Virus record (IMG/VR): IMGVR_UViG_3300033407_000009
Coordinates: 6,269 to 70,268 of that record
Source: a virus
Lineage: Duplodnaviria > Caudoviricetes
Reading direction: 5' to 3' (one strand)
Length of the DNA: 64,000 nucleotides
Positions within the stretch are counted from its first letter, which is position 1. Every line of letters starts with the position of its first letter. The notes beneath the pieces were generated by a model. It was given only the letters and a program-made list of their open reading frames with translations, did not search any database and had not been told where the DNA came from. The translations under genes were made by a program, and so were the position numbers. Shown piece by piece: positions 4,738 to 33,995 of this stretch.

Positions 4738-5607
4738 TCACGCCACGTCCGGCGGCATCTGCCGATTCCTCGTCGAGATCGACCGATCGACGTAATACTT
4801 TCGCATGTCCGGCGTGCGATGTCCAAGGTAATCGCTCACTGCCTCTGGGTGCTCGATGTCCAGTTGCGTCGCCCCCGTCCGGCGAAGCTGCTGCATCGCC
4901 CCGTGCCTGACTCCCGCAATCGCAGTGACGTTGTCCCGCCACCAAACGTACCAGTTGGACTCGTTCGCAAACGGACACTTCAGCACCGGATCCCGCTCCA
5001 GACGCAGCACCAGAGCCAGCGTACGCGGCCGTAGCTGCGGATAGTGGCTGTGGCCGGTCTTGTGCTGCCGGAGCACGACGGCCCCCGTAGGCGTGATCTG
5101 GGAGCGTCTGATCCGCCAGATATCCGACCTTCTAAGTCCGCTGTCATAGACCGCGCAGACCAGCGATTCGCAGTACAGGGCCCGCGGCGTTCCGTCCGGG
5201 AAGTAGCCGACCAGCGCCCGGCAGCGTCGGAGCACGGCCCGCAGCTCGGGAATGGTCCAGGCGGTCGGGCAGGGATCCGGCTTGCGGACACGGCGGACGC
5301 GGCGCGGCCCCTCGACCAGCCCAGCACGGAAGCAGTCTCGCCAGACCATGAGCAAATTCGTCCGGTGGCTGAGGACGGTTCGCTGGGCGTACGTCAATTC
5401 GAGGTGCTGCAGCCAGCGGCTGACCTGGTCGTCTTCCAGATCCAAGAGCTTGGCCGGGCGTCCCAGCCATTCGCCAAAGAGCCGGACAGTGCGCCCCAGC
5501 TGGTATTCGGTAGTGGCTGCCAAGCTGCGATACAGGCTGTACCGCGCGATGTGCGGAAGGATTTCTGACACGGATTTTGCCCCGGTTGTGCCCCGCAAAC
5601 GGTGCAC
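4738..5607 (-). CDS. int: tyrosine recombinase/integrase
   Basis: DSGLRRSDI (Arg I), HKTG (Lys), QQLRRTGAT (HxxR variant), YLGH and YY (catalytic Tyr); upstream core-binding helices. Confidence 0.9.
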   Translation of the reverse strand: MHRLRGTTGAKSVSEILPHIARYSLYRSLAATTEYQLGRTVRLFGEWLGRPAKLLDLEDDQVSRWLQHLELTYAQRTVLSHRTNLLMVWRDCFRAGLVEGPRRVRRVRKPDPCPTAWTIPELRAVLRRCRALVGYFPDGTPRALYCESLVCAVYDSGLRRSDIWRIRRSQITPTGAVVLRQHKTGHSHYPQLRPRTLALVLRLERDPVLKCPFANESNWYVWWRDNVTAIAGVRHGAMQQLRRTGATQLDIEHPEAVSDYLGHRTPDMRKYYVDRSISTRNRQMPPDVA

Positions 5608-5770
5608 TTCCGAGGCTACCAGAGTGGCTATGTTCTTCCGTGTTTCCTCGCGCCTCCGCGGTCCAGTTCTCCAAAATCAGCGTGAATTGTAACGGTCAGC
5701 GAGACCCTGCAGGTGCTACGCCTGACAACCCTTCGGGACTGAGGTGTTCGGGAAAAATGAGCGGATTCTG

Positions 5771-5844
5771 CGGGGTGTGGCTCAGCCTGGTAGAGCGCCT
5801 GCTTCGGGAGCAGGAGGTCGCAAGTTCAAATCTTGTCACCCCGA
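5771..5844 (+). tRNA. trnP: tRNA-Pro(CGG), CCA not encoded
   Basis: Acceptor CGGGGTG/CACCCCG, D arm GCTC/GAGC, anticodon stem CCTGC/GCAGG with loop TTCGGGA, T arm GCAAG-TTCAAAT-CTTGT. Confidence 0.95.
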
Positions 5845-5851
5845 CTGTTTA

Positions 5852-5879
5852 TTGCAAGCCGCAAATCAGCATGTACAAT
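5852..5879 (+). promoter_or_regulatory. sigma70-like promoter of the xis-like gene (probably leaderless)
   Basis: TTGCAA-16bp-TACAAT, ATG 8 nt downstream. Confidence 0.55.
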
Positions 5880-5887
5880 AGCGAGGC

Positions 5888-6106
5888 ATGAGCGAGATGG
5901 CAACAGTTCCTGGCTACTACACGATGGACGAGGCCGCCGATGTCCTGAAGGTTTCGGTGAGCCAGATCTCCCGGTACATCTCGGCCGGACGGATGCCGGC
6001 CATCGACCTTGGCAGGCAGAAACTCATTGAGCAGCACGTGGTTCACACGTTTGAGAAGCCGCCAATCGGGAACCCGCAATTCCGCGAGCGGGCAAAAAAA
6101 TCCTGA
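5888..6106 (+). CDS. excisionase-like HTH (HTH_17/MerR-like) DNA-binding protein
   Basis: YYTMDEAADVLKVSVSQISRYISAGRMPAIDLG pattern; next to integrase and tRNA. Confidence 0.8.
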   Translation: MSEMATVPGYYTMDEAADVLKVSVSQISRYISAGRMPAIDLGRQKLIEQHVVHTFEKPPIGNPQFRERAKKS

Positions 6107-6301: not shown

Positions 6302-6450
6302 TCATGGAATCGCGTGGTTTCCTAGGGGTGCTCGCAGCCCCCATGGCGAGAAGTCGCACGGCCCAATGTGCCGCGCGAGCCTCTCGCCGAATCCCACAAA
6401 TGCCGGATGAATGGGCCGGCAAGTTCCGAACCCGCCACGCGATTCCATGA
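6302..6450 (+). ncRNA. putative tracrRNA-like scaffold for the Cas12f-like protein
   Basis: Closed by a perfect 16-bp inverted repeat (6302-6317/6435-6450). Contains GCTCGCAG (6330-6337), complementary to the repeat end CTGCGAG+C, and AGTTCCGAACCC (6422-6433), complementary to repeat GGGTTTGGAACT with one G:U. Confidence 0.65.
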
Positions 6451-6471: not shown

Positions 6472-6488
6472 GGTTTGGAACTGCGGAG
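6472..6488 (+). repeat. solo fragment of the CRISPR repeat abutting an RBS
   Basis: GGTTTGGAACTGCG (14 nt identical to the repeat) followed by gagAAAGGA and ATG at 6502. Confidence 0.8.
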
Positions 6489-6501: not shown

Positions 6502-7002
6502 ATGACCACGAAAACCACCTCACAAAAGCACGCTCATCTGAAGTCTCTCGCCAAGAAGAATCGTCTCGATGTCTACGAGATGATCCGCCTGGCCAGCGAC
6601 ATTCTTGCCGACCACGAGTACGTCGATTCGCTGGGAGGCGAGGCGGCGGTGCTCGACATGCTGGCCGCTGATGAATTCGCGCACTTTCCCACGCGCCCAG
6701 CCGTCAAGACGATGGTCGACGCGTATCGCGCCAACCCCGATCGCAAGACCTGGAAAGAATACGCATACAGCACGGAGGCGATGGTCGAGCTGGCCAAGCC
6801 GGAGAAGTTGAAGCCCGAAGGAGATCGCACCGACTGGAAGGCATTGGCGAAGGAACGGGAAGCTCGCGTCGCCGAGTTGGAGGCAGTGGTGGCAGACCTT
6901 CGGGCGCGATGCAGCGAGTTGTCTACTCGCGTCGAGGAATTGCTCGGCGTGAATGGCGAACTGCGTGGACGGATCAAGGCGCGACACGAAATGATCGCGT
7001 GA
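6502..7002 (+). CDS. hypothetical protein with C-terminal coiled coil
   Basis: RBS AAAGGA; heptad-rich C-terminus; first gene of the operon. Confidence 0.65.
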   Translation: MTTKTTSQKHAHLKSLAKKNRLDVYEMIRLASDILADHEYVDSLGGEAAVLDMLAADEFAHFPTRPAVKTMVDAYRANPDRKTWKEYAYSTEAMVELAKPEKLKPEGDRTDWKALAKEREARVAELEAVVADLRARCSELSTRVEELLGVNGELRGRIKARHEMIA

Positions 7003-7017: not shown

Positions 7018-8154
7018 GTGAGCGATGGAATTGCAGTGCTCAAACTGAAGGTTACATCGTCGTCAGTCGACCTAGAGCCGGTCGCCGAGATGTGCCGCAA
7101 GGCTCGCAATATGGCTGTCATTGATTGGCTGCTGCGTCAGAAAGGAATGCCACCATCAGAGAGGCAGTCAAAGCGGCATATCAAGCGCAAAGACAAGGCA
7201 GCTGACGCCCCGACGTCTGAATCGAACAAGATTTATCACGCCATCCGGGACGCCGTACCAGCCTTGTCGGCAGACGTGGCATCATCGCTTTCTCAGGCGG
7301 TGAATAGCTATCTCGGCGGCAAGATGGACTGGCGCGAAGGCAAGAGCGAGGACGGCAAGAGGCCGCGCAGGAGAGATGCCATTGCGGAATTCAGGATGAG
7401 GGCTCCGTTCGCGACGGCCTTGGAAATTCCACTTGCCAACAAGAATGTCACGCTGGCATTCACCGACACGATGACCGTCAGGGTGCGGCGAGTGCTGACC
7501 GGCGAGCCGGATATCGAGTTGGTGTTGTCGACCCGGAACATGCCTGCTGGTATCAAGCTGCTAATCCGAGACGTGATCGACGGTCGGAAGAAGCTGGCCG
7601 ATTCGAAGCTGATCCTTCGCCAGGAAAGCTGGTACGTCCATCTGCCTATCTCATGCCCCGCTGTCCCACTTGATCCCGAGCGCGTGGCAACTCTATCGCC
7701 GATCCAGGGAGATGGCCGCTACGACCGACCGTTCCGTCTGAAGCTGCCCAACCAAAATCGCGAGATCGGAGACGGCTGGTACTTGAAGAGCCAGGCGGAG
7801 CGATTCGTGGGATTGCGAAAGCAGATTGGGTGGCGCTACCGGCAGCGCCAGGGAGCCGGACACGGCCGCAAGAAAGCGGACGCGGCAGTGCGTAAGCGCA
7901 TCAAGCAGTTTGCCGACATTGTGTCGGAGGTCAGGCGGCGCATGATCCGGGACATCGTGTCGTGGTGCGAGCGGCGGCAGTGCGGACTGCTGGTCTATCA
8001 CGAGCCGACGTTGCCCCTCAGGACGAAGTGCTGGTTTGCGGCGAATGGCGTGGATTGGGATTGGACTCGGTTTGTCGGCGACTTGGAAAACTCCTGCAAG
8101 CGAAATGGCATTCGGCTCGACAAGCGGCAGCTGAAGCTAAAGGACGTCGCATGA
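7018..8154 (+). CDS. cas12f: Cas12f/TnpB-family protein, predicted nuclease-dead and C-terminally truncated
   Basis: Collinear with Cas12f1 as recalled: KIYHAIR..LSADVASSLSQAV (REC), SWYVHL..LDPERVATLSP (RuvC-I GIDLG, Asp lost), GAGHGRKK (conserved GHGR), GLLVYHEPT (RuvC-II), WDWTRFVGDLENSCKRNGI. Ends before the Zn finger/RuvC-III. GTG start with AAGGAGG; adjacent CRISPR array. Confidence 0.8.
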   Translation: MSDGIAVLKLKVTSSSVDLEPVAEMCRKARNMAVIDWLLRQKGMPPSERQSKRHIKRKDKAADAPTSESNKIYHAIRDAVPALSADVASSLSQAVNSYLGGKMDWREGKSEDGKRPRRRDAIAEFRMRAPFATALEIPLANKNVTLAFTDTMTVRVRRVLTGEPDIELVLSTRNMPAGIKLLIRDVIDGRKKLADSKLILRQESWYVHLPISCPAVPLDPERVATLSPIQGDGRYDRPFRLKLPNQNREIGDGWYLKSQAERFVGLRKQIGWRYRQRQGAGHGRKKADAAVRKRIKQFADIVSEVRRRMIRDIVSWCERRQCGLLVYHEPTLPLRTKCWFAANGVDWDWTRFVGDLENSCKRNGIRLDKRQLKLKDVA

Positions 8155-8441
8155 AAGCGTTGCCGTGCGCGTGTTGCGCAAGGGAAGTGCGTATCCGGGA
8201 TCGGTCACGATTCTTACGGATGGTGCGCGAGCGACGCCAACCGCTGTGCGAGCAGTGCCGTCGCTACGTAAGAGGGGGGGTCGCTCGCATCGCGCAAGTC
8301 CCTGGAGAGCATGATGATCCGAAGTTGTTCCTGGTCAGGGGTCGTGGAAAACACGCACGCAAGAGGAAGGCTCTCGCAAGTCAGCCTCTGGCGCGTGTCT
8401 GCGCAACGGCTTGCGAGGCCGGAGTCGCAGTGGATGAGTGA
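8151..8441 (+). CDS. small zinc-ribbon protein translationally coupled to the Cas12f-like gene
   Basis: ATGA overlap; CACC...CEQC; stop codon lies inside CRISPR repeat 1. Confidence 0.5.
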   Translation: MKALPCACCAREVRIRDRSRFLRMVRERRQPLCEQCRRYVRGGVARIAQVPGEHDDPKLFLVRGRGKHARKRKALASQPLARVCATACEAGVAVDE

Positions 8442-8647
8442 AGGGTTTGGAACTGCGAGCCGGTCCCACCAGCGATACCGCCAGCCGCGGAATCGTCGCA
8501 GTGGATGAGTGAAGGGTTTGGAACTGCGAGCAAAGGTTGACTGCGATGCGAGAAATCATCTAGTCGCAGTGGATGAGTGAAGGGTTTGGAACTGCGAGCG
8601 CCTCGCAGGATGGCGCAGTGGATGAGTGAAGGGTTTGGAACTGCGAG
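8424..8647 (+). CRISPR. mini CRISPR array: 4 x 36-bp repeats GTCGCAGTGGATGAGTGAAGGGTTTGGAACTGCGAG, spacers of 35, 32 and 13 nt
   Basis: Repeats at 8424-8459, 8495-8530, 8563-8598 and 8612-8647 (last has T2G). Terminal inverted TCGCAGT/ACTGCGA. No cas1/cas2 in the window. Confidence 0.95.
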
Positions 8648-11195: not shown

Positions 11196-11666
11196 ATGAT
11201 GGCAACAACTGAACAATCTTTTGTAGATCACATTCTGGTTGGCCACGACGGACCGTGCCTTGTCTGCAGTGGACCTCGCAGTTACCGGGCGTGGACTGAC
11301 GTCAACGGCCAGTGCTACTGTCTGGCGTGCGGCTGTACCTACCAGATTCTCGGCTGCCACTTCAGACAGGAATTCCTAGACAAGCACGGAATCATGAAGG
11401 AGCGAGTGGCCAGGGAATACTGCGACTGCTTCGAGGGATTGGAAGTGTTCCGAGCGTACTGGAGCGAAGTGGGCAAAATGATGCCTTTGGGTTCATTCAT
11501 CGGACGCTCGCCGTATTTGGGCGACCAGCGTCAATCGTGGGGGCGGTGGCTGGCTGAGAACCGAGAACGATTTCGAGACAACGAATATTTCAACTGGGAC
11601 AGCATCATCGCGTGGCATGAAAAACAACGCCCCCATGACGGCCCGCAGCCGAACGAATCGGCGTGA
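11196..11666 (+). CDS. hypothetical Cys-rich protein
   Basis: CLVC...CLACGC; RBS GAGG. Confidence 0.6.
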   Translation: MMATTEQSFVDHILVGHDGPCLVCSGPRSYRAWTDVNGQCYCLACGCTYQILGCHFRQEFLDKHGIMKERVAREYCDCFEGLEVFRAYWSEVGKMMPLGSFIGRSPYLGDQRQSWGRWLAENRERFRDNEYFNWDSIIAWHEKQRPHDGPQPNESA

Positions 11667-16737: not shown

Positions 16738-19167
16738 ATGTGTTGTTTCAACGCACAGCATATGGCGGAACCGGCGGCGGGCGGGCTTATTCAAATCATG
16801 ACCAACATCGAAGTCACCGCCGTCTACCTTGGCGAGAAGTTCCGATTCAACAACTCGGACGGCGCGACCATCATTTCCGAAGTCGACATCGTCGGCGATC
16901 TGCCGAACGGCACGCCCAAGAGACTGAGCATTAAGGGACCCGGGAACGGATTCCAGATCCATCACACGTACCGCCTCTTCGGCCGCTGGACGAAGTATCG
17001 CAACAAGCGAACCGGCGAGGACGAGCAGCAATTCACCTACACCTCGTCCGTCGAGGCCCAGCCGGCCAGCCGAGCAGGAGTCATCCGCTACATCGCAGAC
17101 GCAGGTAAGGGGAATGGGATCGGCACCGGCCTGGCCGCGAAGATCTGGGAGAAGTTCGGCCAGGATGGAGTGCGACTGCTGCGCGAGGAGCCGGAGGCGA
17201 TCTCCGGGGCCATCAAGGGAATCAGCGTCGACAAAGCGAAGCTGACTGGCCTGGAGCTGACCAAAAAGGCCCACATCGAAGCGTGTTCGATTGAACTGCT
17301 CGAGTTGCTCGACCGCCGCGGGTTCCCGAAGGCCGTCCATCGGAGAGCGATTCAGAAGTGGGGGAATGCTGCGGCGGCGTTTATCCGACGCTCCCCTTAC
17401 GTTTTGATGGAATTCCGGGGCGTCGGCTTCAAAGGCACGGACGCCATGTATCTGGACCTCGACCACAATCCGGCCAGGATCAAGCGGCAGGCCCTCTGTG
17501 CGTGGTACAGCCTAGCGTCTGACACCAATGGAAATACCTGGCTCCCCGCAGAGCACGCCATCCAGGGGATCCGCGACAGCGTGGCCGGCGCCCAACTGAA
17601 ACCCGTCGAAGCTCTCACTTTGGCCAAACGGGCCAGGATCATCGAGACGCTGCGGACGCATCCCACTGGCGGCCAGATCGTCGACCAGGGCGGCAACCTC
17701 TGGGTGGCTGAGGGAAAGAAGGCCCGGGGCGAGCGATTCGTCGCGCGGCAGGTGGTCGACTCACTCGACGAACCAACCCACTGGCCGACGATCGAGAAGA
17801 TCCGCGAGGCCCAGCCGAAGCTGACAGATCACCAATACGAACGGCTGGCGGATTCATTGAAGTCGTCGATCTGTCTGTTCGGTGGGAGTCCCGGAACCGG
17901 CAAGACGTTTGCTGCCGCGGCCCTCATTAAGGCCATCGTCCAGGAGTATGGCGATTTGGTGGTAGCTATCGCAGCCCCCACCGGGAAAGCTGCCGTTAGG
18001 GTTACCGAGGCCCTGCAAGAGTATGGCATCGACCTGCGAGCCAAGACGATCCATTCAACTCTACAGATCGACCAAGTCGGAAACGGTAGCGGAGGATGGA
18101 CCTTCAAATACCGGGAAGGGAATCCCCTGCCGTTCAAATTCATCGTCGTCGATGAATCGAGCATGATTCCGACCGACCTAATGGCTTCACTACTGGCGGC
18201 CAGGGCGAAAGGTACGCACGTATTCTTCGTCGGCGACGTACACCAACTGCCCCCAGTCGGCCACGGCGCTCCGCTACGGGACTTCATCGCCGCCGGCATC
18301 CCATACGGCGAGCTGCGGGAGATCCAACGCAACGCTGGCCGCATCGTCAAAGCATGCGCCCAGATCCGTGACGGCGAGAAGTTTGAAGTGTCGCCAGGAA
18401 TGGATCTGGATGCTGGCGAGAATCTGTATCTGCTCGGCGGAGACAGTAGCGAAGAGATGCTGACGACGCTGGATGGAATCTTCGAGGCGATCAAGATATT
18501 GGGGTTCGATCCAGTCTGGGAAACGCAAGTCGTTGTTCCAGTGAATCGCAAGTCCGACATGAGCCGCGTCGCGCTGAATCGGAAGTTGCAAGAGTTGCTG
18601 AACGATAACCCTGGCCAGAAGGGTGTTGTGTTCCGCAAGGCCGACAAAATCGTGAACACCAAGAACGGCTGGTATACCGCCGTCGACCTGGACGTATCGA
18701 GCCCTGACCTGCAAACGAACGACCAGGGCGAAGTCTACGTGGCGAACGGCGAACTGGCCGAGATCGTCGAAGTCCACGATAAGCTTGTCGTGGCCAAACT
18801 GAATAACCCCAGTCGAGTTATAAAGATCCCACGTGGCAGCCAGGAGAAGGAGAGTACGGAAGATTCAGAAGCTCCTTCGACTGGCTGCTCATGGGATTTG
18901 GGGTACGCAATCAGCGTTCATAAGAGTCAAGGAAGCGAGTGGGGTGTGGTGATTGTCGTGCTGGACGAATACCCCGGCGCCAGGATGGTTGCCGATAGGG
19001 GGTGGGTGTACACAGCGATCAGCCGCGCGAAAAAACTCTGCCTGCTACTCGGCAAGCTGGAGACGGCACACCGATTCTGCCGACAGACGAAGATTCATCA
19101 ACGGAAGACGTTCCTGGCGGAACTGATTAAGTGGGAAGTGGCGAAGAAGATGGTTCATGACATTTGA
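16738..19167 (+). CDS. recD2: RecD2/TraA-like SF1B helicase
   Basis: HhH GIGTGLA, NPY-like SPYVL..FRGVGFK, Walker A GSPGTGKT, IVVDESSMI, VGDVHQLPPVG, GYAISVHKSQGSEW, YTAISRAK. True start may be 16798. Confidence 0.92.
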   Translation: MCCFNAQHMAEPAAGGLIQIMTNIEVTAVYLGEKFRFNNSDGATIISEVDIVGDLPNGTPKRLSIKGPGNGFQIHHTYRLFGRWTKYRNKRTGEDEQQFTYTSSVEAQPASRAGVIRYIADAGKGNGIGTGLAAKIWEKFGQDGVRLLREEPEAISGAIKGISVDKAKLTGLELTKKAHIEACSIELLELLDRRGFPKAVHRRAIQKWGNAAAAFIRRSPYVLMEFRGVGFKGTDAMYLDLDHNPARIKRQALCAWYSLASDTNGNTWLPAEHAIQGIRDSVAGAQLKPVEALTLAKRARIIETLRTHPTGGQIVDQGGNLWVAEGKKARGERFVARQVVDSLDEPTHWPTIEKIREAQPKLTDHQYERLADSLKSSICLFGGSPGTGKTFAAAALIKAIVQEYGDLVVAIAAPTGKAAVRVTEALQEYGIDLRAKTIHSTLQIDQVGNGSGGWTFKYREGNPLPFKFIVVDESSMIPTDLMASLLAARAKGTHVFFVGDVHQLPPVGHGAPLRDFIAAGIPYGELREIQRNAGRIVKACAQIRDGEKFEVSPGMDLDAGENLYLLGGDSSEEMLTTLDGIFEAIKILGFDPVWETQVVVPVNRKSDMSRVALNRKLQELLNDNPGQKGVVFRKADKIVNTKNGWYTAVDLDVSSPDLQTNDQGEVYVANGELAEIVEVHDKLVVAKLNNPSRVIKIPRGSQEKESTEDSEAPSTGCSWDLGYAISVHKSQGSEWGVVIVVLDEYPGARMVADRGWVYTAISRAKKLCLLLGKLETAHRFCRQTKIHQRKTFLAELIKWEVAKKMVHDI

Positions 19168-19179
19168 AAGGAGTTCGTT

Positions 19180-19509
19180 ATGGGGAAGAAGAAGTCATCA
19201 TCCGCGACCGCGACCGTGAAGAAGTCTCGAAAGAAGGTAGACCCCAAACAGCAGTACATCGAAGGAACGGAGCCTGTTCGCGTGGCCGAGATCGACGACC
19301 AGGCCGAACACTACCGCGAGGCCAGAGACTCTCGCATGGAATCGACCGAGGAAGAGGTTGCTCAGAAGGGTATCTTGCTGGAACTGATGCAGAAGCACGG
19401 GCTCGACTACTATCCCATTCCTGACACCGATTACGAAGTCATCGTCGTCAGCGGCGAGACGGACGTGAAGGTAAGAAAGCGAAAGAAGGAGAAGGAGAAC
19501 CAAGAATGA
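19180..19509 (+). CDS. hypothetical basic/acidic protein
   Basis: RBS AAGGAG. Confidence 0.65.
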   Translation: MGKKKSSSATATVKKSRKKVDPKQQYIEGTEPVRVAEIDDQAEHYREARDSRMESTEEEVAQKGILLELMQKHGLDYYPIPDTDYEVIVVSGETDVKVRKRKKEKENQE

Positions 19510-19736
19510 ACGGAAAAGTCCCATGCCCCCGATGCGGTGGGAAAGCGAGCCCCAACGCTCGGGGGTATCAGTGGGTTCACTGTCGTCGGTGCGGCGGACT
19601 GGTTCCGATCAACTACCGCGACGACGACGGGCCGTACAGCGACGACCCAGTACAGTCGGCCATGGCAAACGAACGAGGGATGGCGGACGCTGGCCGCGTG
19701 CTACGCGGAAGCGGCGAACTACGGGGAGGGTTGTAG
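19506..19736 (+). CDS. zinc-ribbon protein
   Basis: CPRC...CRRC. Confidence 0.55.
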   Translation: MNGKVPCPRCGGKASPNARGYQWVHCRRCGGLVPINYRDDDGPYSDDPVQSAMANERGMADAGRVLRGSGELRGGL

Positions 19737-20536
19737 TGGTTCTCGACAGCAAAATCGACATCGTCCGGGACGCTTTCAACATTCATCGTCTGGACGACTG
19801 GACGCGAGTTGAGACGGACGACATTGTCGCGCTGCACGGCGTGGGGGACGTGACGCTCCAGCACATCCGTCTCTATCTGGCAGGCCAAGGCCGAACACTG
19901 CACAACGACCGCACGCCCGGCTACTGGCTGGACCATCTCGGCACGGCCAAGGTGGGGCAACAGATCAGCGATGAGGACAAGTCGATCATCTTCCCGTGCG
20001 CCGTCCTGATCGACACCGCTGAGACGCAGCCGTTCACCTTCCATGGCCTGCGATGCGATGCCGACCAGCAGCATCGGCCGCTCATCGTCAAGACGGAATG
20101 GCGAGCACTTGGCCGGCATCCCGACTCGTTGGGCGACTATTCCCTGGACGGCTACGTCGGCCGCTGCCATGTCGAGCGGAAGTCCGTGAAAGACTTCCAG
20201 GGGACATTGATGGAGTTCGGCCAAGACGGGCGCCGCGAGCGTTTCGAGAGCGAGCTGTCGAACCTGGAGAAGCTCGAAGCAGCGGCCGTCGTCGTCGAGG
20301 GGACACTGCTGCGAGCGATCACCGTCCAGCACGAATACGGCAAGAAGCCTAGCCAGGAAGCGGCCAAACTGCTCATGCGATCAGTGCTCGCCTACCAGCA
20401 GGATTACGACGTACCCTGGCTGTTCTGCGACGATCGACGCATGGCCGAGGTTGCCACGTTCCGGTTTCTGGAGCGATTCTGGAGGAAGGATCAGGAGAAG
20501 AGGAAAGAAGCAGAGAGGATGTTGGCGGGGATTTAG
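19736..20536 (+). CDS. ERCC4/XPF-family nuclease (probable junction resolvase)
   Basis: VLIDTAETQP, GDYS, VERKS, VVVEG motifs; N-terminal HhH-like LHGVGDVTL; GTG start with GGGGAGG. Confidence 0.85.
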   Translation: MVLDSKIDIVRDAFNIHRLDDWTRVETDDIVALHGVGDVTLQHIRLYLAGQGRTLHNDRTPGYWLDHLGTAKVGQQISDEDKSIIFPCAVLIDTAETQPFTFHGLRCDADQQHRPLIVKTEWRALGRHPDSLGDYSLDGYVGRCHVERKSVKDFQGTLMEFGQDGRRERFESELSNLEKLEAAAVVVEGTLLRAITVQHEYGKKPSQEAAKLLMRSVLAYQQDYDVPWLFCDDRRMAEVATFRFLERFWRKDQEKRKEAERMLAGI

Positions 20537-20564
20537 TGCAGCGGATGAGGTTTGGAACTGCGAG
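20536..20564 (+). repeat. solo degenerate CRISPR repeat upstream of the primase
   Basis: GTGCAGCGGATGA-GGTTTGGAACTGCGAG equals the array repeat with an internal ~6-nt deletion; the last 16 nt are identical. Confidence 0.9.
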
Positions 20565-20614
20565 AACTGAGCCACGGATTCGCCACAGGGAGTGGCAAGG
20601 ATTGGCGGGGATAA

Positions 20615-23095
20615 ATGGCACGCAAACGCGACGAAGAGATTGAAAAACTGAAGGCTGTCTGTAGCGGACGATGGCCGGAAATCATATCTGCCTTGTGCAA
20701 CGTCGATGCCGGCTACTTCGATGGCCGGCACAAGGAATGCCCGAGATGCGGCGGGAAGGATCGCTACAGGTGTTTCGACGACGATAGCGGAGGAGCGATC
20801 TGCGGCCAGTGTTTTGACCGTAAGAACGGCGACGGCTTCTCGACGATCGGGTGGCTAACTGGGCGCACGTCGGACAAAGACTTCCCCAAGATCGCCCAGG
20901 AAGTCGCGAAGTTTGTCGGCTACACGCTGAACGGCAAGTACAAGAAGAAGCAAAAGGACCCCGCTGAGAACCTCAAATTCGAGGACTGGCACGAAGGATT
21001 GGTTGCCTACTGGTGCGCGAACCATGAGCCCATTCAACCCGCGGCGGTGGCGGCATTCGGTGGCCGACTCGCCACCTACCGCGGCCAGCATAAGGTGATC
21101 GCCTTCCCGGTACGCGGGCCCGACCTGGACGCCAGCCAGCCAGTGGGATGGGTGATCTCGGCTCTCAATGGGAAGCTCCCCGTTTGGCACAGCGCCGACA
21201 AGACGCCCAGCGATTACGTGAAGGTGAAGACGACCAGTGGCAGCAAGTCTGGTGTCATTTGCGCCGATCCGCCGGAAGGCTTCGACACGCTCTGGAAGTC
21301 TGAGGGGCTGACGGACTCATTGGCGCTTCAGCAGATGACGCCGGGGAAACACTGGGTTGCGACCAACTCGGCCGGGGCCGGCGAGAAGCCGTTCCCTTGG
21401 CTGTGCCAGATGGCCAAAGGCAGGCGGGCCCTCGTCCTGCACGACTGCGACGAGCCCGGGCAGCGCGGCGCCACCTACTCAGACAGCGGCGACGGGAAGA
21501 AGCGGCCAGGGTGGTGCCCGGAATTCGTCCGCGCGGAAGCCGCCGAAGTCCGCAACATCGTCCTGCCATACCCCATCACCCCCACAAAGGGTAAGGATTT
21601 CCGCGACTGGCTGCTGGCTGGCCACGGGATCGAGGATCTGACCGAGATCGTCGAGAAGGCCCCCAAGTTCCAGCGCGACGAGGAATCAGAGACGGAGGTT
21701 GACGAAGCCGTTGACGATCCACACCGTCTAGCCCGCGTCAACCTGCATCGCTATGCCGTCCGCAATAGCGGCGCGACGATCAAATTCTGGCGAGGGGAAT
21801 GGTTCGCTTGGAAAAGGACGCGATACCGGAAGATCAGTGACGGAGAGTTGCGAGCCAAGATGTCAGCCAGCGTCAAGGAACAATTCAACGACGACTGGAA
21901 GTCCACCAAAGACAGTCAGGACGAGCTGAAGCCTGTTCGTAAGGTGACACAGAACTTAATCAACAACGTCATTCGAGCTACTGAATCCCTTTGCATCATC
22001 CCTGAGCATGTCGAGATGGGAACTTGGATCGACGGCCGGCTGCGGGAGAAGCGGAACTATATCTCATTCCAGAATGGCATTCTGGACATCGAGGCGACCT
22101 TGGATCAGAAGAAGGAGATTCTGACCGAGCATTCCCTAAACTGGTTCAGCACGCTCTGCCTGCCATACGACTTTAATCCAGATGCAGAGTGCCCGAAATG
22201 GTTGGCATTCCTACGGCGGAACCTGGAAAACGACATCGAGCGTATCTACCTGCTTCAGGAGTGGGCTGGCTACCTTCTCCTACCGGACACCGGATTTCAG
22301 AAGTTCCTCGTCCTTGAAGGTGAGGGCGCGAACGGCAAGTCCGTCTATTGTGCCGGCATCGAGGCCATGCTGGGACGCGACAATTGCAGTCATGTTTCCC
22401 TGGAAGTCTTCGGGGATCGATTCAGCCGCACCCAAACGTTGGGGAAGTTGGTGAACATCGCGGCCGACGTCGGCGAGATGGACAAGGTAGCTGAGGGATT
22501 CGTCAAATCGTTCACCAGCGGCGAGACGATGTTCTTCGATCGGAAGGGGATCAGCGGCGTCGATACCTATCCCACAGCCAGGCTGATGCTGGCCTGCAAC
22601 AACCGTCCGCGGTTCTCGGATCGGTCTTCGGGAATAACAAGGCGGATGATGATTTGCCCTTGGCGCGTCCAGATCGATCCGGAAGAGCGGATCTCCAACA
22701 TGGACAAGGCTTGGTGGTGGGAACAGGCGGGAGAACTCCCGGGAATGTTTCGATGGGCATTCTATGGGTTAATCAGGTTGCGAAATCAGCAGAGCTTTAC
22801 AGAGCCATCCATTTGCCGTGAGGCACTGGCCGAATACCAGGACGAAATGAACCCGGCTCGCGTATTCCTTCTCGAGGTAACGGCAAGCAGAGGTGGCGCA
22901 AGCGCTTCATCAGCTGAACTGTATGAGCGGTACAAGCAGTGGTGCAAAGACAACGGATACCGACCGCTGGCAAGCAGTTCGCTCGGGAAAGAGATTCGCA
23001 GGATCTACCCACACATCAAACGTGAGAAGATGACTGTCGGCGGGGTGCGTGAATGGAGGTATTCGGGAATGGAGACGAAAGGAGCTGACTGGTGA
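20615..23095 (+). CDS. P4-alpha-like primase-helicase (Zn finger + TOPRIM + D5/SF3 helicase)
   Basis: HKECPRCGGKDRYRC Zn finger, SEGLTD and DCD TOPRIM motifs, GEGANGKS Walker A, SGE...RK...NNRPRFSD...RRM. Confidence 0.93.
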   Translation: MARKRDEEIEKLKAVCSGRWPEIISALCNVDAGYFDGRHKECPRCGGKDRYRCFDDDSGGAICGQCFDRKNGDGFSTIGWLTGRTSDKDFPKIAQEVAKFVGYTLNGKYKKKQKDPAENLKFEDWHEGLVAYWCANHEPIQPAAVAAFGGRLATYRGQHKVIAFPVRGPDLDASQPVGWVISALNGKLPVWHSADKTPSDYVKVKTTSGSKSGVICADPPEGFDTLWKSEGLTDSLALQQMTPGKHWVATNSAGAGEKPFPWLCQMAKGRRALVLHDCDEPGQRGATYSDSGDGKKRPGWCPEFVRAEAAEVRNIVLPYPITPTKGKDFRDWLLAGHGIEDLTEIVEKAPKFQRDEESETEVDEAVDDPHRLARVNLHRYAVRNSGATIKFWRGEWFAWKRTRYRKISDGELRAKMSASVKEQFNDDWKSTKDSQDELKPVRKVTQNLINNVIRATESLCIIPEHVEMGTWIDGRLREKRNYISFQNGILDIEATLDQKKEILTEHSLNWFSTLCLPYDFNPDAECPKWLAFLRRNLENDIERIYLLQEWAGYLLLPDTGFQKFLVLEGEGANGKSVYCAGIEAMLGRDNCSHVSLEVFGDRFSRTQTLGKLVNIAADVGEMDKVAEGFVKSFTSGETMFFDRKGISGVDTYPTARLMLACNNRPRFSDRSSGITRRMMICPWRVQIDPEERISNMDKAWWWEQAGELPGMFRWAFYGLIRLRNQQSFTEPSICREALAEYQDEMNPARVFLLEVTASRGGASASSAELYERYKQWCKDNGYRPLASSSLGKEIRRIYPHIKREKMTVGGVREWRYSGMETKGADW

Positions 23096-23322
23096 AGTGC
23101 CAGGTATGTAAAGCGGAGATTGAAAAACGTGTCGGAACGAAGTTTTGCTCCGGCAAGTGTCGCCAGAAGGCGTACCGCCAAAAAAGCAAAGGAAGCGTTC
23201 TCAAAATGAACATGGAAACCAACCTTTGTCCAGGGTGCGGAATGGAAATTTTCAAGCCAGGATACTGCTCCAATGCCTGCAAGCAGAAATCTTACAGAAG
23301 TTGTGCACGTTACCTTGCGTAA
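23092..23322 (+). CDS. small Cys-rich protein
   Basis: CQVC..FCSGKCRQKAYR, CPGC..YCSNACKQ. Confidence 0.55.
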   Translation: MKCQVCKAEIEKRVGTKFCSGKCRQKAYRQKSKGSVLKMNMETNLCPGCGMEIFKPGYCSNACKQKSYRSCARYLA

Positions 23323-23730
23323 CGATTCGCGTAACGGTTGTTACGCAAAACCGTTACGCTGTTACCCAAAACCGTTACGCGAAGGCTGTTCGCGTAACGA
23401 TTCGCGTAACGGTGTTACGCAAAACCGTTACGCTGTTACTCGAAATCGTTACGCGAAATCCAAGATTGCAAAAGTGCGTCAAAAATGAGTCGGCAGCTTG
23501 AGATTAAAAAGCGTTACGCGAAGTCTCGATTGCCCCAGATTTTACCCAGTTTCGCCCTGACGGCGACCCAGCTTAAGTCGTTTCATATCAACGACTGCCC
23601 TAGGTGCCCCAGTTTTTCTTACTCCTTACTACTCTAAAGAGATAGTTTCACAATCAAATACATAAAACACATTAGAGAAAAGTATGGGGGGGTATATAGA
23701 GAACTGGGCTTCTGGGACTACTGGGACACT
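23308..23730. other. putative replication origin (iterons plus AT-rich core)
   Basis: About 14 GTAAC/GTTAC pentamers at 23309-23517 including a ~49-bp duplication. Then CCCAG repeats (23531-23612) and inverted CTGGG repeats (23704-23725) flank an AT-rich stretch. Directly after the primase. Confidence 0.7.
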
Positions 23731-25360
23731 TTACCTACTTTAACATTGGTGATTTAGATGGGATTGTTCGAAGAGATGGATCTTGGGGTCCAGAGAAGGG
23801 ACGATCCGTCACCATCCCTCCCCCCCGCTGCCCCCTGCCTCGTCTGCGATTCCCCGCTGGCCTGGCTGTCGGTGTACGGCCAGACGTCCTGCTGGCGCTG
23901 TGATCCGCCGCCGGCGACTGGATTGATCAAGATCCGCCTGGCCGCGGCTTACATGGCCGGCCAGTTCGTCTGGCGCGCCCATCCATCCGATCGCTGGGAG
24001 CCGGGCGGCGGCCGCGATGTTGGCCCCGCCCTGGCCGCTTTGGGTGTGGGTGGCGATGTTGGCGGCGTCGGCGGCGAGGCGGACGGCGGCAGGGCAGCTG
24101 GCGTCGAGTTCGTGCCGCCTGGATTCCTGGCCGCTTGGTTCGATCGACTTCGTGAGTGGGCGGTAAATTGACATGGACCCCCGCCTGATCCTCGCTCGCG
24201 AAACGGACACGAAAAACATGCTCGCCGACCAGCGTTCAGAGCACATCCAAGAGACGCTGGTGATTTGCAAGCGGTGTCGAGCGCGTCCGGTGTTTTACGT
24301 GTTCGCCGGCAAGGGTGCCGAGGACGGTATTTGCTTGACGTGCTGGGAGGTGACTAGGCGATGAGCGTGATCGAATGCACGGAGCAGGACACGCTGCGAA
24401 TCACGATTGACAAAACCGTCGTGCTGACGGTCCCGGTGGACGAGGTGGTACGGTTGGTGCTTGAGGATAGCAAGAAGGTGGACGGATGGCGAAGGGACTC
24501 AGCGCAACCCAGCGGACGCTAAGGATCCATGTATAGAGACGGCGTGCTGCAAAAGGACATTGCTGTTGAATTTATGATTGCTGAGTCGACCGTATCAAAC
24601 ATCATATCCGGTCGTCGTTGGCCGCGGATTGAGGAAGTGACCAGGGGGGATTTCTAGATGTCTGGGTGTGTCGACTGCGGGCGGCCATACGGTGACCAAT
24701 ACGGATTCCCGGATTTGATAATCCCAGACGAAGCGTGGCTGGCTATCAGTCCCACGGGACACGGCGGCGGCCTGCTGTGTCCGAGCTGCATTTGCCAGCG
24801 GCTTCATGTTCGCGGCATCACGTGCGAAGGGCGATTTACTTCGGGGCCATTGTGCGAGCGGGAGGGGTGAAGTGGCAAAAGTACCGACTTCAATTGAGTG
24901 TGAGGGTGCCATGAAACCCATCTCCCCGAAACGCCAGCGCCGCAACCGCGAAGCATCCGCGGTCCGCAAGGCATTCGCGGAGGATCTTCCGTTCTGCATG
25001 TTGTGCAGGGTTGGGCCTGGATCGTTGAATCCAATCGACACACTTGGCGGCCGGAGAGGCGTGACCGGGACCCGAAAGGTTACCCATTTTGACATGGGCG
25101 CCAGACGCACCAGATTGGCTTCTGCTGCGAGTTCTCGGATTCGGGGACAATGTGCCGCTCTGGGAGGCGTTCACGCGGGAGGCGGCGGATGACAGCGTGC
25201 AGCGGTGGCGAATTGTCGAGCAGCTAGCGCTGAAGGCTCTCTGCGACGTGAAGCATTACGACCGAGTGAAAGTGAACCAGTTACGCGGCCGTCAACCAGA
25301 CGCCATAACCGAGAGCGAGGTGTGGGCGGCGTTACCTGAGGTGCTGAGGAGGATTGGACG

Positions 25361-29391: not shown

Positions 29392-29704
29392 GGCAAACCC
29401 CTCGAGTGTGAGAACAAAAGGGCGAAAACGATTTCCGCCGCCGCATGAAGTACCCGTTGTCGCCGCGAAAATTTTCATCCGCTGGCGGCAATCAAGAGAT
29501 CCGCTGGCGGCAATCGCTGGCGGCAATCCCTAACCAGGTGTGGGCTAGGTGGCATCCCTGGTGAGATTTGGGTGAAAAATCCCGCAAGTCTAGTACCCGT
29601 TTGGGTTTGCGAGATTTTCTGAAAATCAGAGGATCGGCAACGGGTACTGACTGCAAGAGCGGACCACGTCGGGACCGCTCAAAGACTCACATGGGGAGAT
29701 TCAG

Positions 29705-33102: not shown

Positions 33103-33248
33103 TTGACTAAAGTCCAGAAACTTCCCACCATTTCCAGTAGGTGATTTGGAACTGCGAGCAGTAGCGGGTGGTAAGGCCACCCGAACTCACCAGCGTTAGC
33201 GGACACGAAAACCCGCGGCTGCCTTTCATGGCGGCTGGCGGGTTTTTT
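33103..33248 (+). ncRNA. putative stand-alone crRNA-like small RNA (promoter + solo repeat fragment + hairpin + terminator)
   Basis: TTGACT-17bp-CACCAT; TTTGGAACTGCGAGC at 33145-33159; hairpin CGGGTGG/CCACCCG; terminator AACCCGCGGCTGCC...GGCGGCTGGCGGGTTTTTT ending at 33248. Confidence 0.6.
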
Positions 33249-33632: not shown

Positions 33633-33995
33633 ATGTCGGAAGTAACTTCCCACAAGGTGAATGGATTGAACGAATTGCTTCGCATTGAAGTGCTGGACGA
33701 TCCTGGTCCCGGAAACGCCTGCCACCAATATTCTATCACCCCCACCATTGGCAACGCCTCTGGTGTCAGGATTGATTTTCAGAAAGGACCTCTCAAGGAA
33801 AGCCCTCCCAACGGATTGAGCAACGAGTCGCTCCTTGCCATCGTCGAGCATCGCTTGCAGGGATTCCAGTCCGGCATTTATGCCTGCCGTGAGAACGCGC
33901 TGGCGTTGACGAAGATTCAAGAGGCGATGCACTGGCTTCACCACCGAACTCGCGAGCGAGTCGCCCGTGGAGTCGAGGGCACATCACAGAAGTAA
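33633..33995 (+). CDS. tad1: Tad1-family anti-defence sponge protein
   Basis: GPGNACHQY...FQKGP.KE...NG...LLAIVEHRLQGFQSG.YACRENALALTKIQEAMHWL..RT.ER..RGVEGT is collinear with Tad1 as recalled. Confidence 0.85.
   Translation: MSEVTSHKVNGLNELLRIEVLDDPGPGNACHQYSITPTIGNASGVRIDFQKGPLKESPPNGLSNESLLAIVEHRLQGFQSGIYACRENALALTKIQEAMHWLHHRTRERVARGVEGTSQK

Follow-up and report, generated by a model that had tools for sequence, protein, structure and literature searches.

The role known to date for solitary CRISPR repeats in phages is that of a decoy that counters host CRISPR. Racrs mimic host repeats, are made as small RNAs from promoters of their own, and suppress host immunity by binding Cas proteins in aberrant, inactive complexes (Camara-Wilpert et al., 2023; PMC10651486). 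CrlRNAs of the CreR type combine a degenerate repeat outside an array with a spacer-like part that is partly complementary to a distant promoter (bioRxiv 10.1101/2024.12.27.630466). Nuclease-dead Cas12f proteins (dCas12f) are newly recognised RNA-guided gene regulators in bacteria; they are experimentally established RNA-guided DNA binders, with guides that in addition regulate the operon they come from (Hoffmann et al., Nature 2026; PMC13472631). The characterised dCas12f clade has a sigma-E partner and single chimeric guides, operon-auto-regulating ones among them, and no tracrRNA (PMC13472631). TldRs resemble the effector discussed below in being miniature nuclease-dead RNA-guided proteins, sometimes borne by prophages, that repress specific genes; they differ in being derived from TnpB and in having omega-RNA-like guides beside the gene, no CRISPR array and no dispersed repeats.

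The window, i.e., the whole 64,000-nt stretch analysed here, comprises bases 6269–70268 of a 70-kb IMG/VR virus record. It holds a solitary repeat unit that belongs with a dCas12f carried by the phage and that runs into the native leader of a gene. Like a Racr, the unit is a single repeat outside an array that could be Cas-bound through its repeat-derived part; unlike Racrs, it corresponds to the array and effector of the phage itself, shows no promoter-like site, sits inside an operon and is fused to a native leader. With crlRNAs it shares a degenerate repeat outside an array and a possible loading into an effector for regulation; unlike crlRNAs, it has no distant target found in the phage, its own locus being the only matching DNA. 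The dCas12f systems of PMC13472631, including their CRISPR-linked cluster, have the same truncated fold and the same linkage to CRISPR repeats, and by analogy with them the phage effector would be expected to bind DNA by RNA guidance without cutting. The partners of the phage family are different: a coiled-coil protein, a small zinc-ribbon ORF and a tracrRNA-like RNA. Handles dispersed within operons are not described for the dCas12f systems of PMC13472631. If the phage does scatter handles of its own dead Cas12f before its own genes, solitary repeats and dCas12f regulation would become linked; a virus would regulate itself with a CRISPR remnant, and the guide would be supplied in cis by the regulated transcript.

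SOLITARY REPEAT AT THE ERCC4-PRIMASE JUNCTION

The first base of the solitary repeat is the last base of the ERCC4 stop codon (TAG, 20534–20536), and 50 nt separate its end from the primase ATG (Table 1). Positions 20536–20564 align with positions 4–36 of the repeat in the phage's own array, 12 kb away, and represent a shortened form of this 36-nt repeat. The 16 nt at the 3' end (20549–20564), the handle, are identical to the array repeat, and the 5' part (20536–20549) has one T>C change, one missing C and a 6-nt internal deletion (TGAAGG). Gapped alignment of the whole repeat with the junction gave a score of 39, against maxima of 21–27 in five shuffled windows, which rules out chance resemblance. 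For the last 16 nt of the array repeat, 0.57 matches were expected at up to three mismatches, and the observed count was reached by no shuffle. What lies at the junction is a true single copy of the array repeat of this phage: repeat-like, outside the array and significantly similar to a bona fide repeat. The preliminary description had reported a near-complete repeat with an internal deletion of about 6 nt starting at the ERCC4 stop codon, followed by a GCCAC-AGGGA-GTGGC hairpin and the primase start, and the alignment and coordinates agree with it on all these points.

Within the element, the handle has no change in 16 nt and the upstream 20 nt have three (p about 0.07 by our own estimate). 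This contrast between the handle and the 5' half is weakly non-random and is the sole internal hint of selection.

Table 1. Coordinates of the features at the junction, in the source CRISPR locus and at the other solo units; positions refer to the window unless a relative is named.
Feature	Position	Strand	Remarks
Candidate tracrRNA-like structured RNA	6304–6450	+	Anti-repeat 6419–6433; upstream of module
Counterparts of the tracrRNA-like RNA	L007:9170–9320; L009:9290–9440; L011:8760–8900		Conserved structured RNA
Second partial repeat	6472–6487	+	14 exact nt; 14 nt before ATG of the module's first gene
166-aa coiled-coil-like gene	6502–7002	+	First of conserved three-gene module
Predicted Cas12f-fold effector, 378 aa	7018–8154	+	Profile, AF2 model, Foldseek
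Small CxxC...CxxC ORF	8151–8441	+	Overlaps effector end; kept after effector in relatives
Mini-CRISPR array	8424–8647	+	Four 36-nt repeats; spacers of 35, 32 and 13 nt
ERCC4-domain nuclease gene	19736–20536	+	Pfam ERCC4, E 1.9e-6; 266 aa by homologues
Direct-repeat copy 1, 11 nt	20522–20532	+	Encodes ERCC4 C-terminus; spacing 80
Solitary degenerate CRISPR repeat	20536–20564	+	Shuffle-tested alignment to own array repeat
Native primase 5' leader	20565–20614	+	Motifs common to primase leaders of L057, L013 and L049
Small hairpin, 5 bp and 5-nt loop	20582–20596	+	GCCAC/AGGGA/GTGGC; MFE and centroid folds
Direct-repeat copy 2	20602–20612	+	Contains likely primase Shine-Dalgarno GGGGA, 4 nt before ATG
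Primase-helicase gene	20615–23095	+	Zn_Ribbon_Prim, D5_N, DUF5906, Pox_D5/RFX C-terminus
Third partial repeat	33143–33158	+	15/16; upstream 13 nt match repeat 5' part 9/13

The sequence that follows the solo repeat has counterparts in relatives. Local alignment recovered three motifs: 20573–20583 recurs in the primase leader of L057 (11/11, p 0.002–0.004), 20583–20592 in that of L013 (10/10, p 0.014–0.027) and 20593–20605 in that of L049 (12/13, p 0.01). All three lie directly upstream of the primase start, at the equivalent place, in relatives that have no CRISPR. These shared motifs rule out a spacer origin of 20565–20600. Judged by them, the approximately 50 nt past the solo repeat are the native primase leader and not a spacer, a point that is new here. 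Because the downstream sequence is native leader, the unit is best described as a handle with an ordinary leader, and not as a repeat with a foreign spacer. This weakens the earlier suggestion that a guide is excised from the replication mRNA: the downstream 50 nt are native leader, and their first 20 nt have no match elsewhere.

The hairpin overlaps the conserved AGGGAG leader motif. No special RNA structure was seen at the junction, the 116-nt region folding like its shuffles (z = 0.02), and consensus scans of 19000–24000 gave neither a sigma-70-like promoter site nor a terminator-like site on the + strand. The solo element is flanked by an exact 11-nt direct repeat; for an 11-mer common to the two 100-nt flanks, shuffles gave p = 0.004. 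The pattern TGGCRRGGAT occurs three times in the window, always inside the approximately 90-nt stretch 20523–20612. The bracketing direct repeat and this triplication point to local illegitimate recombination. Upstream, a longer ERCC4 ORF of 337 aa begins at 19523, and the homologues, of 262–290 aa, cover the last 79% of it.

THE SOURCE CRISPR LOCUS

The array adjoins a conserved three-gene module made up of a coiled-coil protein of approximately 170 aa, the effector and the small CxxC ORF. Modules of this family are adjoined by arrays of 1–14 related repeats. Cas1 was not found in the 70-kb record and was detected in the control genomes. In the array of the window, repeat 4 starts with GG, not GT, and the 13-nt spacer 3 carries the exact complement of the last 7 nt of the preceding repeat, with which it can form a perfect 7-bp hairpin with a 3-nt loop (8592–8611).

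The effector ORF has no Pfam match. A profile of 36 effector homologues matched Cas12f chains in PDB with E 7e-13, and 'nuclease-deactivated Cas12f' with E 1e-10. The AlphaFold (AF2) model has a pLDDT of 93, and Foldseek matched it to AsCas12f (E 9e-18) and to the dCas12f 9n9c (E 1e-16). In the profile alignment, the position of the GVDMG (RuvC-I) of OsCas12f falls on an Asp-free stretch, and the effector ends before the zinc-finger/RuvC-III part; the complete RuvC catalytic triad of an active nuclease is not present. From sequence profile and model, the effector is predicted to be a Cas12f-fold protein, C-terminally truncated, of the nuclease-dead type (dCas12f); the truncation matches that described for natural dCas12f (PMC13472631). 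The preliminary description had spoken of a Cas12f-like effector, and the profile and Foldseek matches bear this out. The family has 214 representatives at 50% identity, which are metagenomic, and nearly all its close members have 375–450 aa.

Upstream of the module, the anti-repeat (14 bp) is the best duplex partner of the repeat 3' end in the locus. The structured RNA that contains it is conserved upstream of the module in four phages (the window phage, L007, L009 and L011), and the anti-repeat changes in step with the repeat of each phage (window, L007 and L009). A tracrRNA with an anti-repeat complementary to the repeat is characteristic of type V-F/dCas12f, and this feature is present here. 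The conserved RNA is a likely tracrRNA, a role supported by the covariation of anti-repeat and repeat. In the window, it is closed by an inverted repeat of 15–16 bp followed by a T-rich tract.

The segment GGTTTGGAACTGC, which is kept in the solo repeat, is the part complementary to the anti-repeat. The predicted duplex has −20.2 kcal/mol with the solo handle vs. −23.9 with the full array repeat, an energy that is unexceptional in this GC-rich genome, where 4.7% of random 20-mers pair equally well. Since the solo copy keeps the anti-repeat-pairing segment, it is physically plausible that RNA lands at this site on the ERCC4-primase transcript. Such a site, where RNA would land or be processed so that the effector complex gates primase expression, had been proposed before; the landing part gains from the kept pairing segment and from analogous handles upstream of other start codons, and the processing and gating parts are what we infer.

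OTHER SOLO UNITS

Two further solo units had been claimed for this phage, and partial copies are indeed present at 6472 and 33143, both in non-coding DNA and with the same orientation. The preliminary description had placed the three units at early, replication and late checkpoints and seen in them a CRISPR-derived developmental control circuit. The data give this circuit no support: the architecture varies among the three units, and the junction position recurs in none of the relatives compared. In our reading of 33130–33158, the 9/13 count for the upstream part of the third unit requires an internal deletion of approximately 8 nt, and on this alignment the late-region unit may comprise the whole repeat in a 'short form' like that seen at 20536. 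A possible fourth copy at 29601 was not counted (11/14 only, with weak tracr pairing).

Solo units are also found in two relatives with the dCas12f module. The 73.6-kb record G001 (L018/L063), whose effector is 45% identical, has a full-length degenerate repeat (score 35) across the stop/start junction before a 61-aa winged-helix-like ORF. In the same record, 38 nt separate a copy of the 3' half from the ATG of a gene for a secreted trypsin-like peptidase. The two units share the strand of the arrays and are remote from them. The G001 effector is flanked by two arrays with diverged repeat variants (L018:9396–9941 and 11258–11443), and spacers 1 and 2 of the upstream array have the same sequence. 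In L007, which has no real spacers, 7 nt separate the end of a handle copy from the ATG of the effector gene. The same locus has, after the zinc-ribbon ORF, a full repeat, 10 nt and a half repeat, in addition to the handle copy (L007:9958–9993 and 11472–11540). The layout of L007 suggests a purely regulatory, non-immune use of the system.

All six solo units (three in the window, two in G001 and one in L007) have the orientation of the array and genes; each is in non-coding sequence or at the boundary of a gene, and for five of the six a downstream start codon could be identified, 0–50 nt away. In two lineages, genes of the module itself have a handle over their ribosome-binding region, an arrangement that looks like autoregulation. 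No solo unit was found in the whole 48-kb record of G002, or within 10 kb of the effector in L087, L088 and L011. Solo units are sporadic in the dCas12f family, three phages having them and four giving none in the stretches searched.

LOCATION OF THE JUNCTION AND OF THE CASSETTE IN RELATIVES

In the relatives that share the replication module, the ERCC4 and primase genes are adjacent, or are separated by a 72-aa ORF or by unrelated ORFs of 1.1–2.2 kb; the junction inserts are unrelated and range over 0.2–2.2 kb overall. No repeat-like motif was present at the ERCC4-primase junction of the replication-module relatives compared, and the dCas12f effector is absent from five whole records of such relatives. 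Synteny of the solo repeats, which the preliminary description had put forward as a check, is not borne out at this junction, its position being shared by no relative compared. Single-protein scans of IMG/VR with ERCC4 and with the effector gave no match. In contig P0207 (ENA ERZ25072999), a gene-free stretch of 1.1 kb directly follows the ERCC4 homologue, before the primase region, and could be an array at the junction studied here.

The dCas12f cassette is mobile, with different locations in L007, L009, L011 and L087. In L009:8332–13714, and also in L010, L015, L016 and L059, the module and a 14-repeat array lie between two ORFs that carry the two halves of a RecD2-type helicase. One flanking ORF of L009 has the N-terminal RecD2 domains OB_YrrC and HHH_RecD2, and the other has the C-terminal helicase domains; by this domain split, the cassette looks as if it had been inserted into, or had split, a helicase gene.

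TARGETS AND ORIGIN OF THE GUIDE-LIKE SEQUENCES

The first 20 nt after the junction handle have a best other match of 14/20 in the 70-kb phage, which is at noise level, and no match in 22 related sequences (three whole phage records and 19 loci). Exact 20-mers of the solo 'guide' and of spacer 1 gave zero matches in IMG/VR. The spacer-like part thus differs from that of crlRNA/CreR/CreA, where it is complementary to a target promoter elsewhere: the best match is 14/20 and the sequence is a native leader. More generally, no self- or cross-targets of solo 'guides' or spacers were found in the 70-kb genome or the 22 related sequences, except for one self-match in G002, and the sequences that follow the three solo units show no significant homology, after multiple testing, to one another or to the array trailer. 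The exception is the position-5 spacer of G002 (L084–L086), which matches G002:44595–44624 in 26/30 over its distal 30 nt only (E 0.03). It is probably chance; alternatively, it may be a regulatory self-target.

The 16-nt handle has six single matches in IMG/VR, which lack extended similarity and were judged to be chance. A search of 185,579 species genomes recovered neither the exact 27-nt degenerate core pattern of the repeat nor a cellular homologue of the effector family, and hence pointed to no host or prophage copy. A fixed distance of 46 bp from repeat end to start, as in dCas12f-sigmaE, fits roughly at 20536 (+46 = 20610, ATG at 20615); this rule was dropped because the other solo units all misfit and the conserved module has no sigma gene.

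FUNCTION OR RELIC

The best explanation, held tentatively and at somewhat less than even confidence, is that the solo unit acts as a cis docking handle in the replication mRNA. The unit derives from the dCas12f array and is fused in sense to the native primase leader within the presumed ERCC4-primase transcription unit, the 3' handle having been kept unchanged and the dispensable 5' half having decayed. Transcription of the replication operon would open the handle in the mRNA to pairing with the tracrRNA-like RNA, the nuclease-dead Cas12f would bind the handle/tracr duplex, and the primase leader would take the place of the guide. The bound complex could then modulate primase expression in three ways: it might impede the ribosome, induce processing between the ERCC4 and primase cistrons or, if the adjacent-motif rule tolerates the repeat end, form a DNA roadblock on its own locus. 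Transcription across the junction, binding and regulatory effect are all inferred steps of this scheme. The first 20 nt past the handle cover neither the likely Shine-Dalgarno nor the ATG (+43 to +53 after the handle). Because of this distance, a direct ribosome block is less obvious here than at 6472 or in L007, and the complex might instead act at this junction through processing or through a DNA roadblock directed at its own locus. The junction is a compact testable case, with a 29-nt handle, a 50-nt leader and one reporter gene.

A neutral recombination relic without function is also possible, and stands nearly equal to the docking handle. A repeat-bearing segment, for example an array end or the cassette itself, would once have lain at this accessory-gene hot-spot or have recombined there by microhomology, and later deletion would have left a single decaying repeat beside the native leader. 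Such a history agrees with the unrelated inserts (0.2–2.2 kb) that relatives have at the same junction, with the movement of the cassette between phages and with the illegitimate recombination to which the significant 11-nt direct repeat and the TGGCRRGGAT triplication point. It also agrees with the internal deletion and mutations of the solo repeat, with a junction that has no promoter, terminator or exceptional fold, and with the sporadic distribution of solo units in the family; intergenic, same-strand survival is expected of neutral insertions in a one-strand phage genome. A relic accounts less well for a 16-nt handle that is perfectly kept while the remainder changed, for the recurrence in three phages of sense-strand solo units near start codons and for the two independent cases on the module's own ribosome-binding regions, which look designed rather than accidental. 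If the unit is a mere scar, it documents cassette movement through accessory-gene hot-spots of planctomycete-type phage genomes.

A wider form of the docking-handle reading is unlikely. Here the dCas12f would, besides array spacers, take crRNA handles from the phage's own mRNAs, with the leaders as guides, and the resulting autogenous control would be a device of CRISPR origin that times phage development and arose repeatedly in dCas12f phages. The controlled genes would be its own operon, the primase and the late-region RNA, through a self-targeted roadblock or a translational block.

A Racr-type decoy, i.e., a transcribed solo repeat that titrates the Cas12f of a host or a rival phage with the same repeat family, is improbable. 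Solitary repeat units in phages are known to act as decoys (PMC10651486), and the phage carries a Tad1-like anti-defence gene (33633–33995; weak Pfam match). The solo repeat, however, corresponds to the array in the same genome, which also supplies a fitting effector and tracr-like RNA; this, with the finding of no cellular array in the species genomes searched, disfavours a decoy. The repeat core pattern and a cellular effector homologue are missing from those 185,579 genomes, and the consensus scan gave the solo unit no promoter of its own, which Racrs have. About as improbable is an orphan crRNA gene, in which the handle and the following 20 nt or so would be cut from the mRNA to guide the effector to a foreign or host target: the layout, with unique sequence after a handle, is like that of a repeat and its spacer, but the 'guide' is native primase leader common to CRISPR-less relatives and is matched nowhere else in the phage (best 14/20), nor in the 22 related sequences or, as a 20-mer, in IMG/VR.

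MINOR FEATURES OF THE WINDOW

The block of + strand genes opens with an integrase, a tRNA-Pro and an excisionase-like gene. In 4738–6105, the integrase (− strand), tRNA-Pro(CGG) at 5771–5845 and the excisionase-like HTH ORF form an attP-type arrangement. L013, the closest replication-module relative, has an integrase and HTH_17 in the same order, and no dCas12f cassette in the 20.8 kb examined. The Tad1-like ORF encodes 120 aa with a sub-threshold match to the Acb2/Tad1 hairpin domain (24 bits, cut-off 27), and L013 has a counterpart of the same family.
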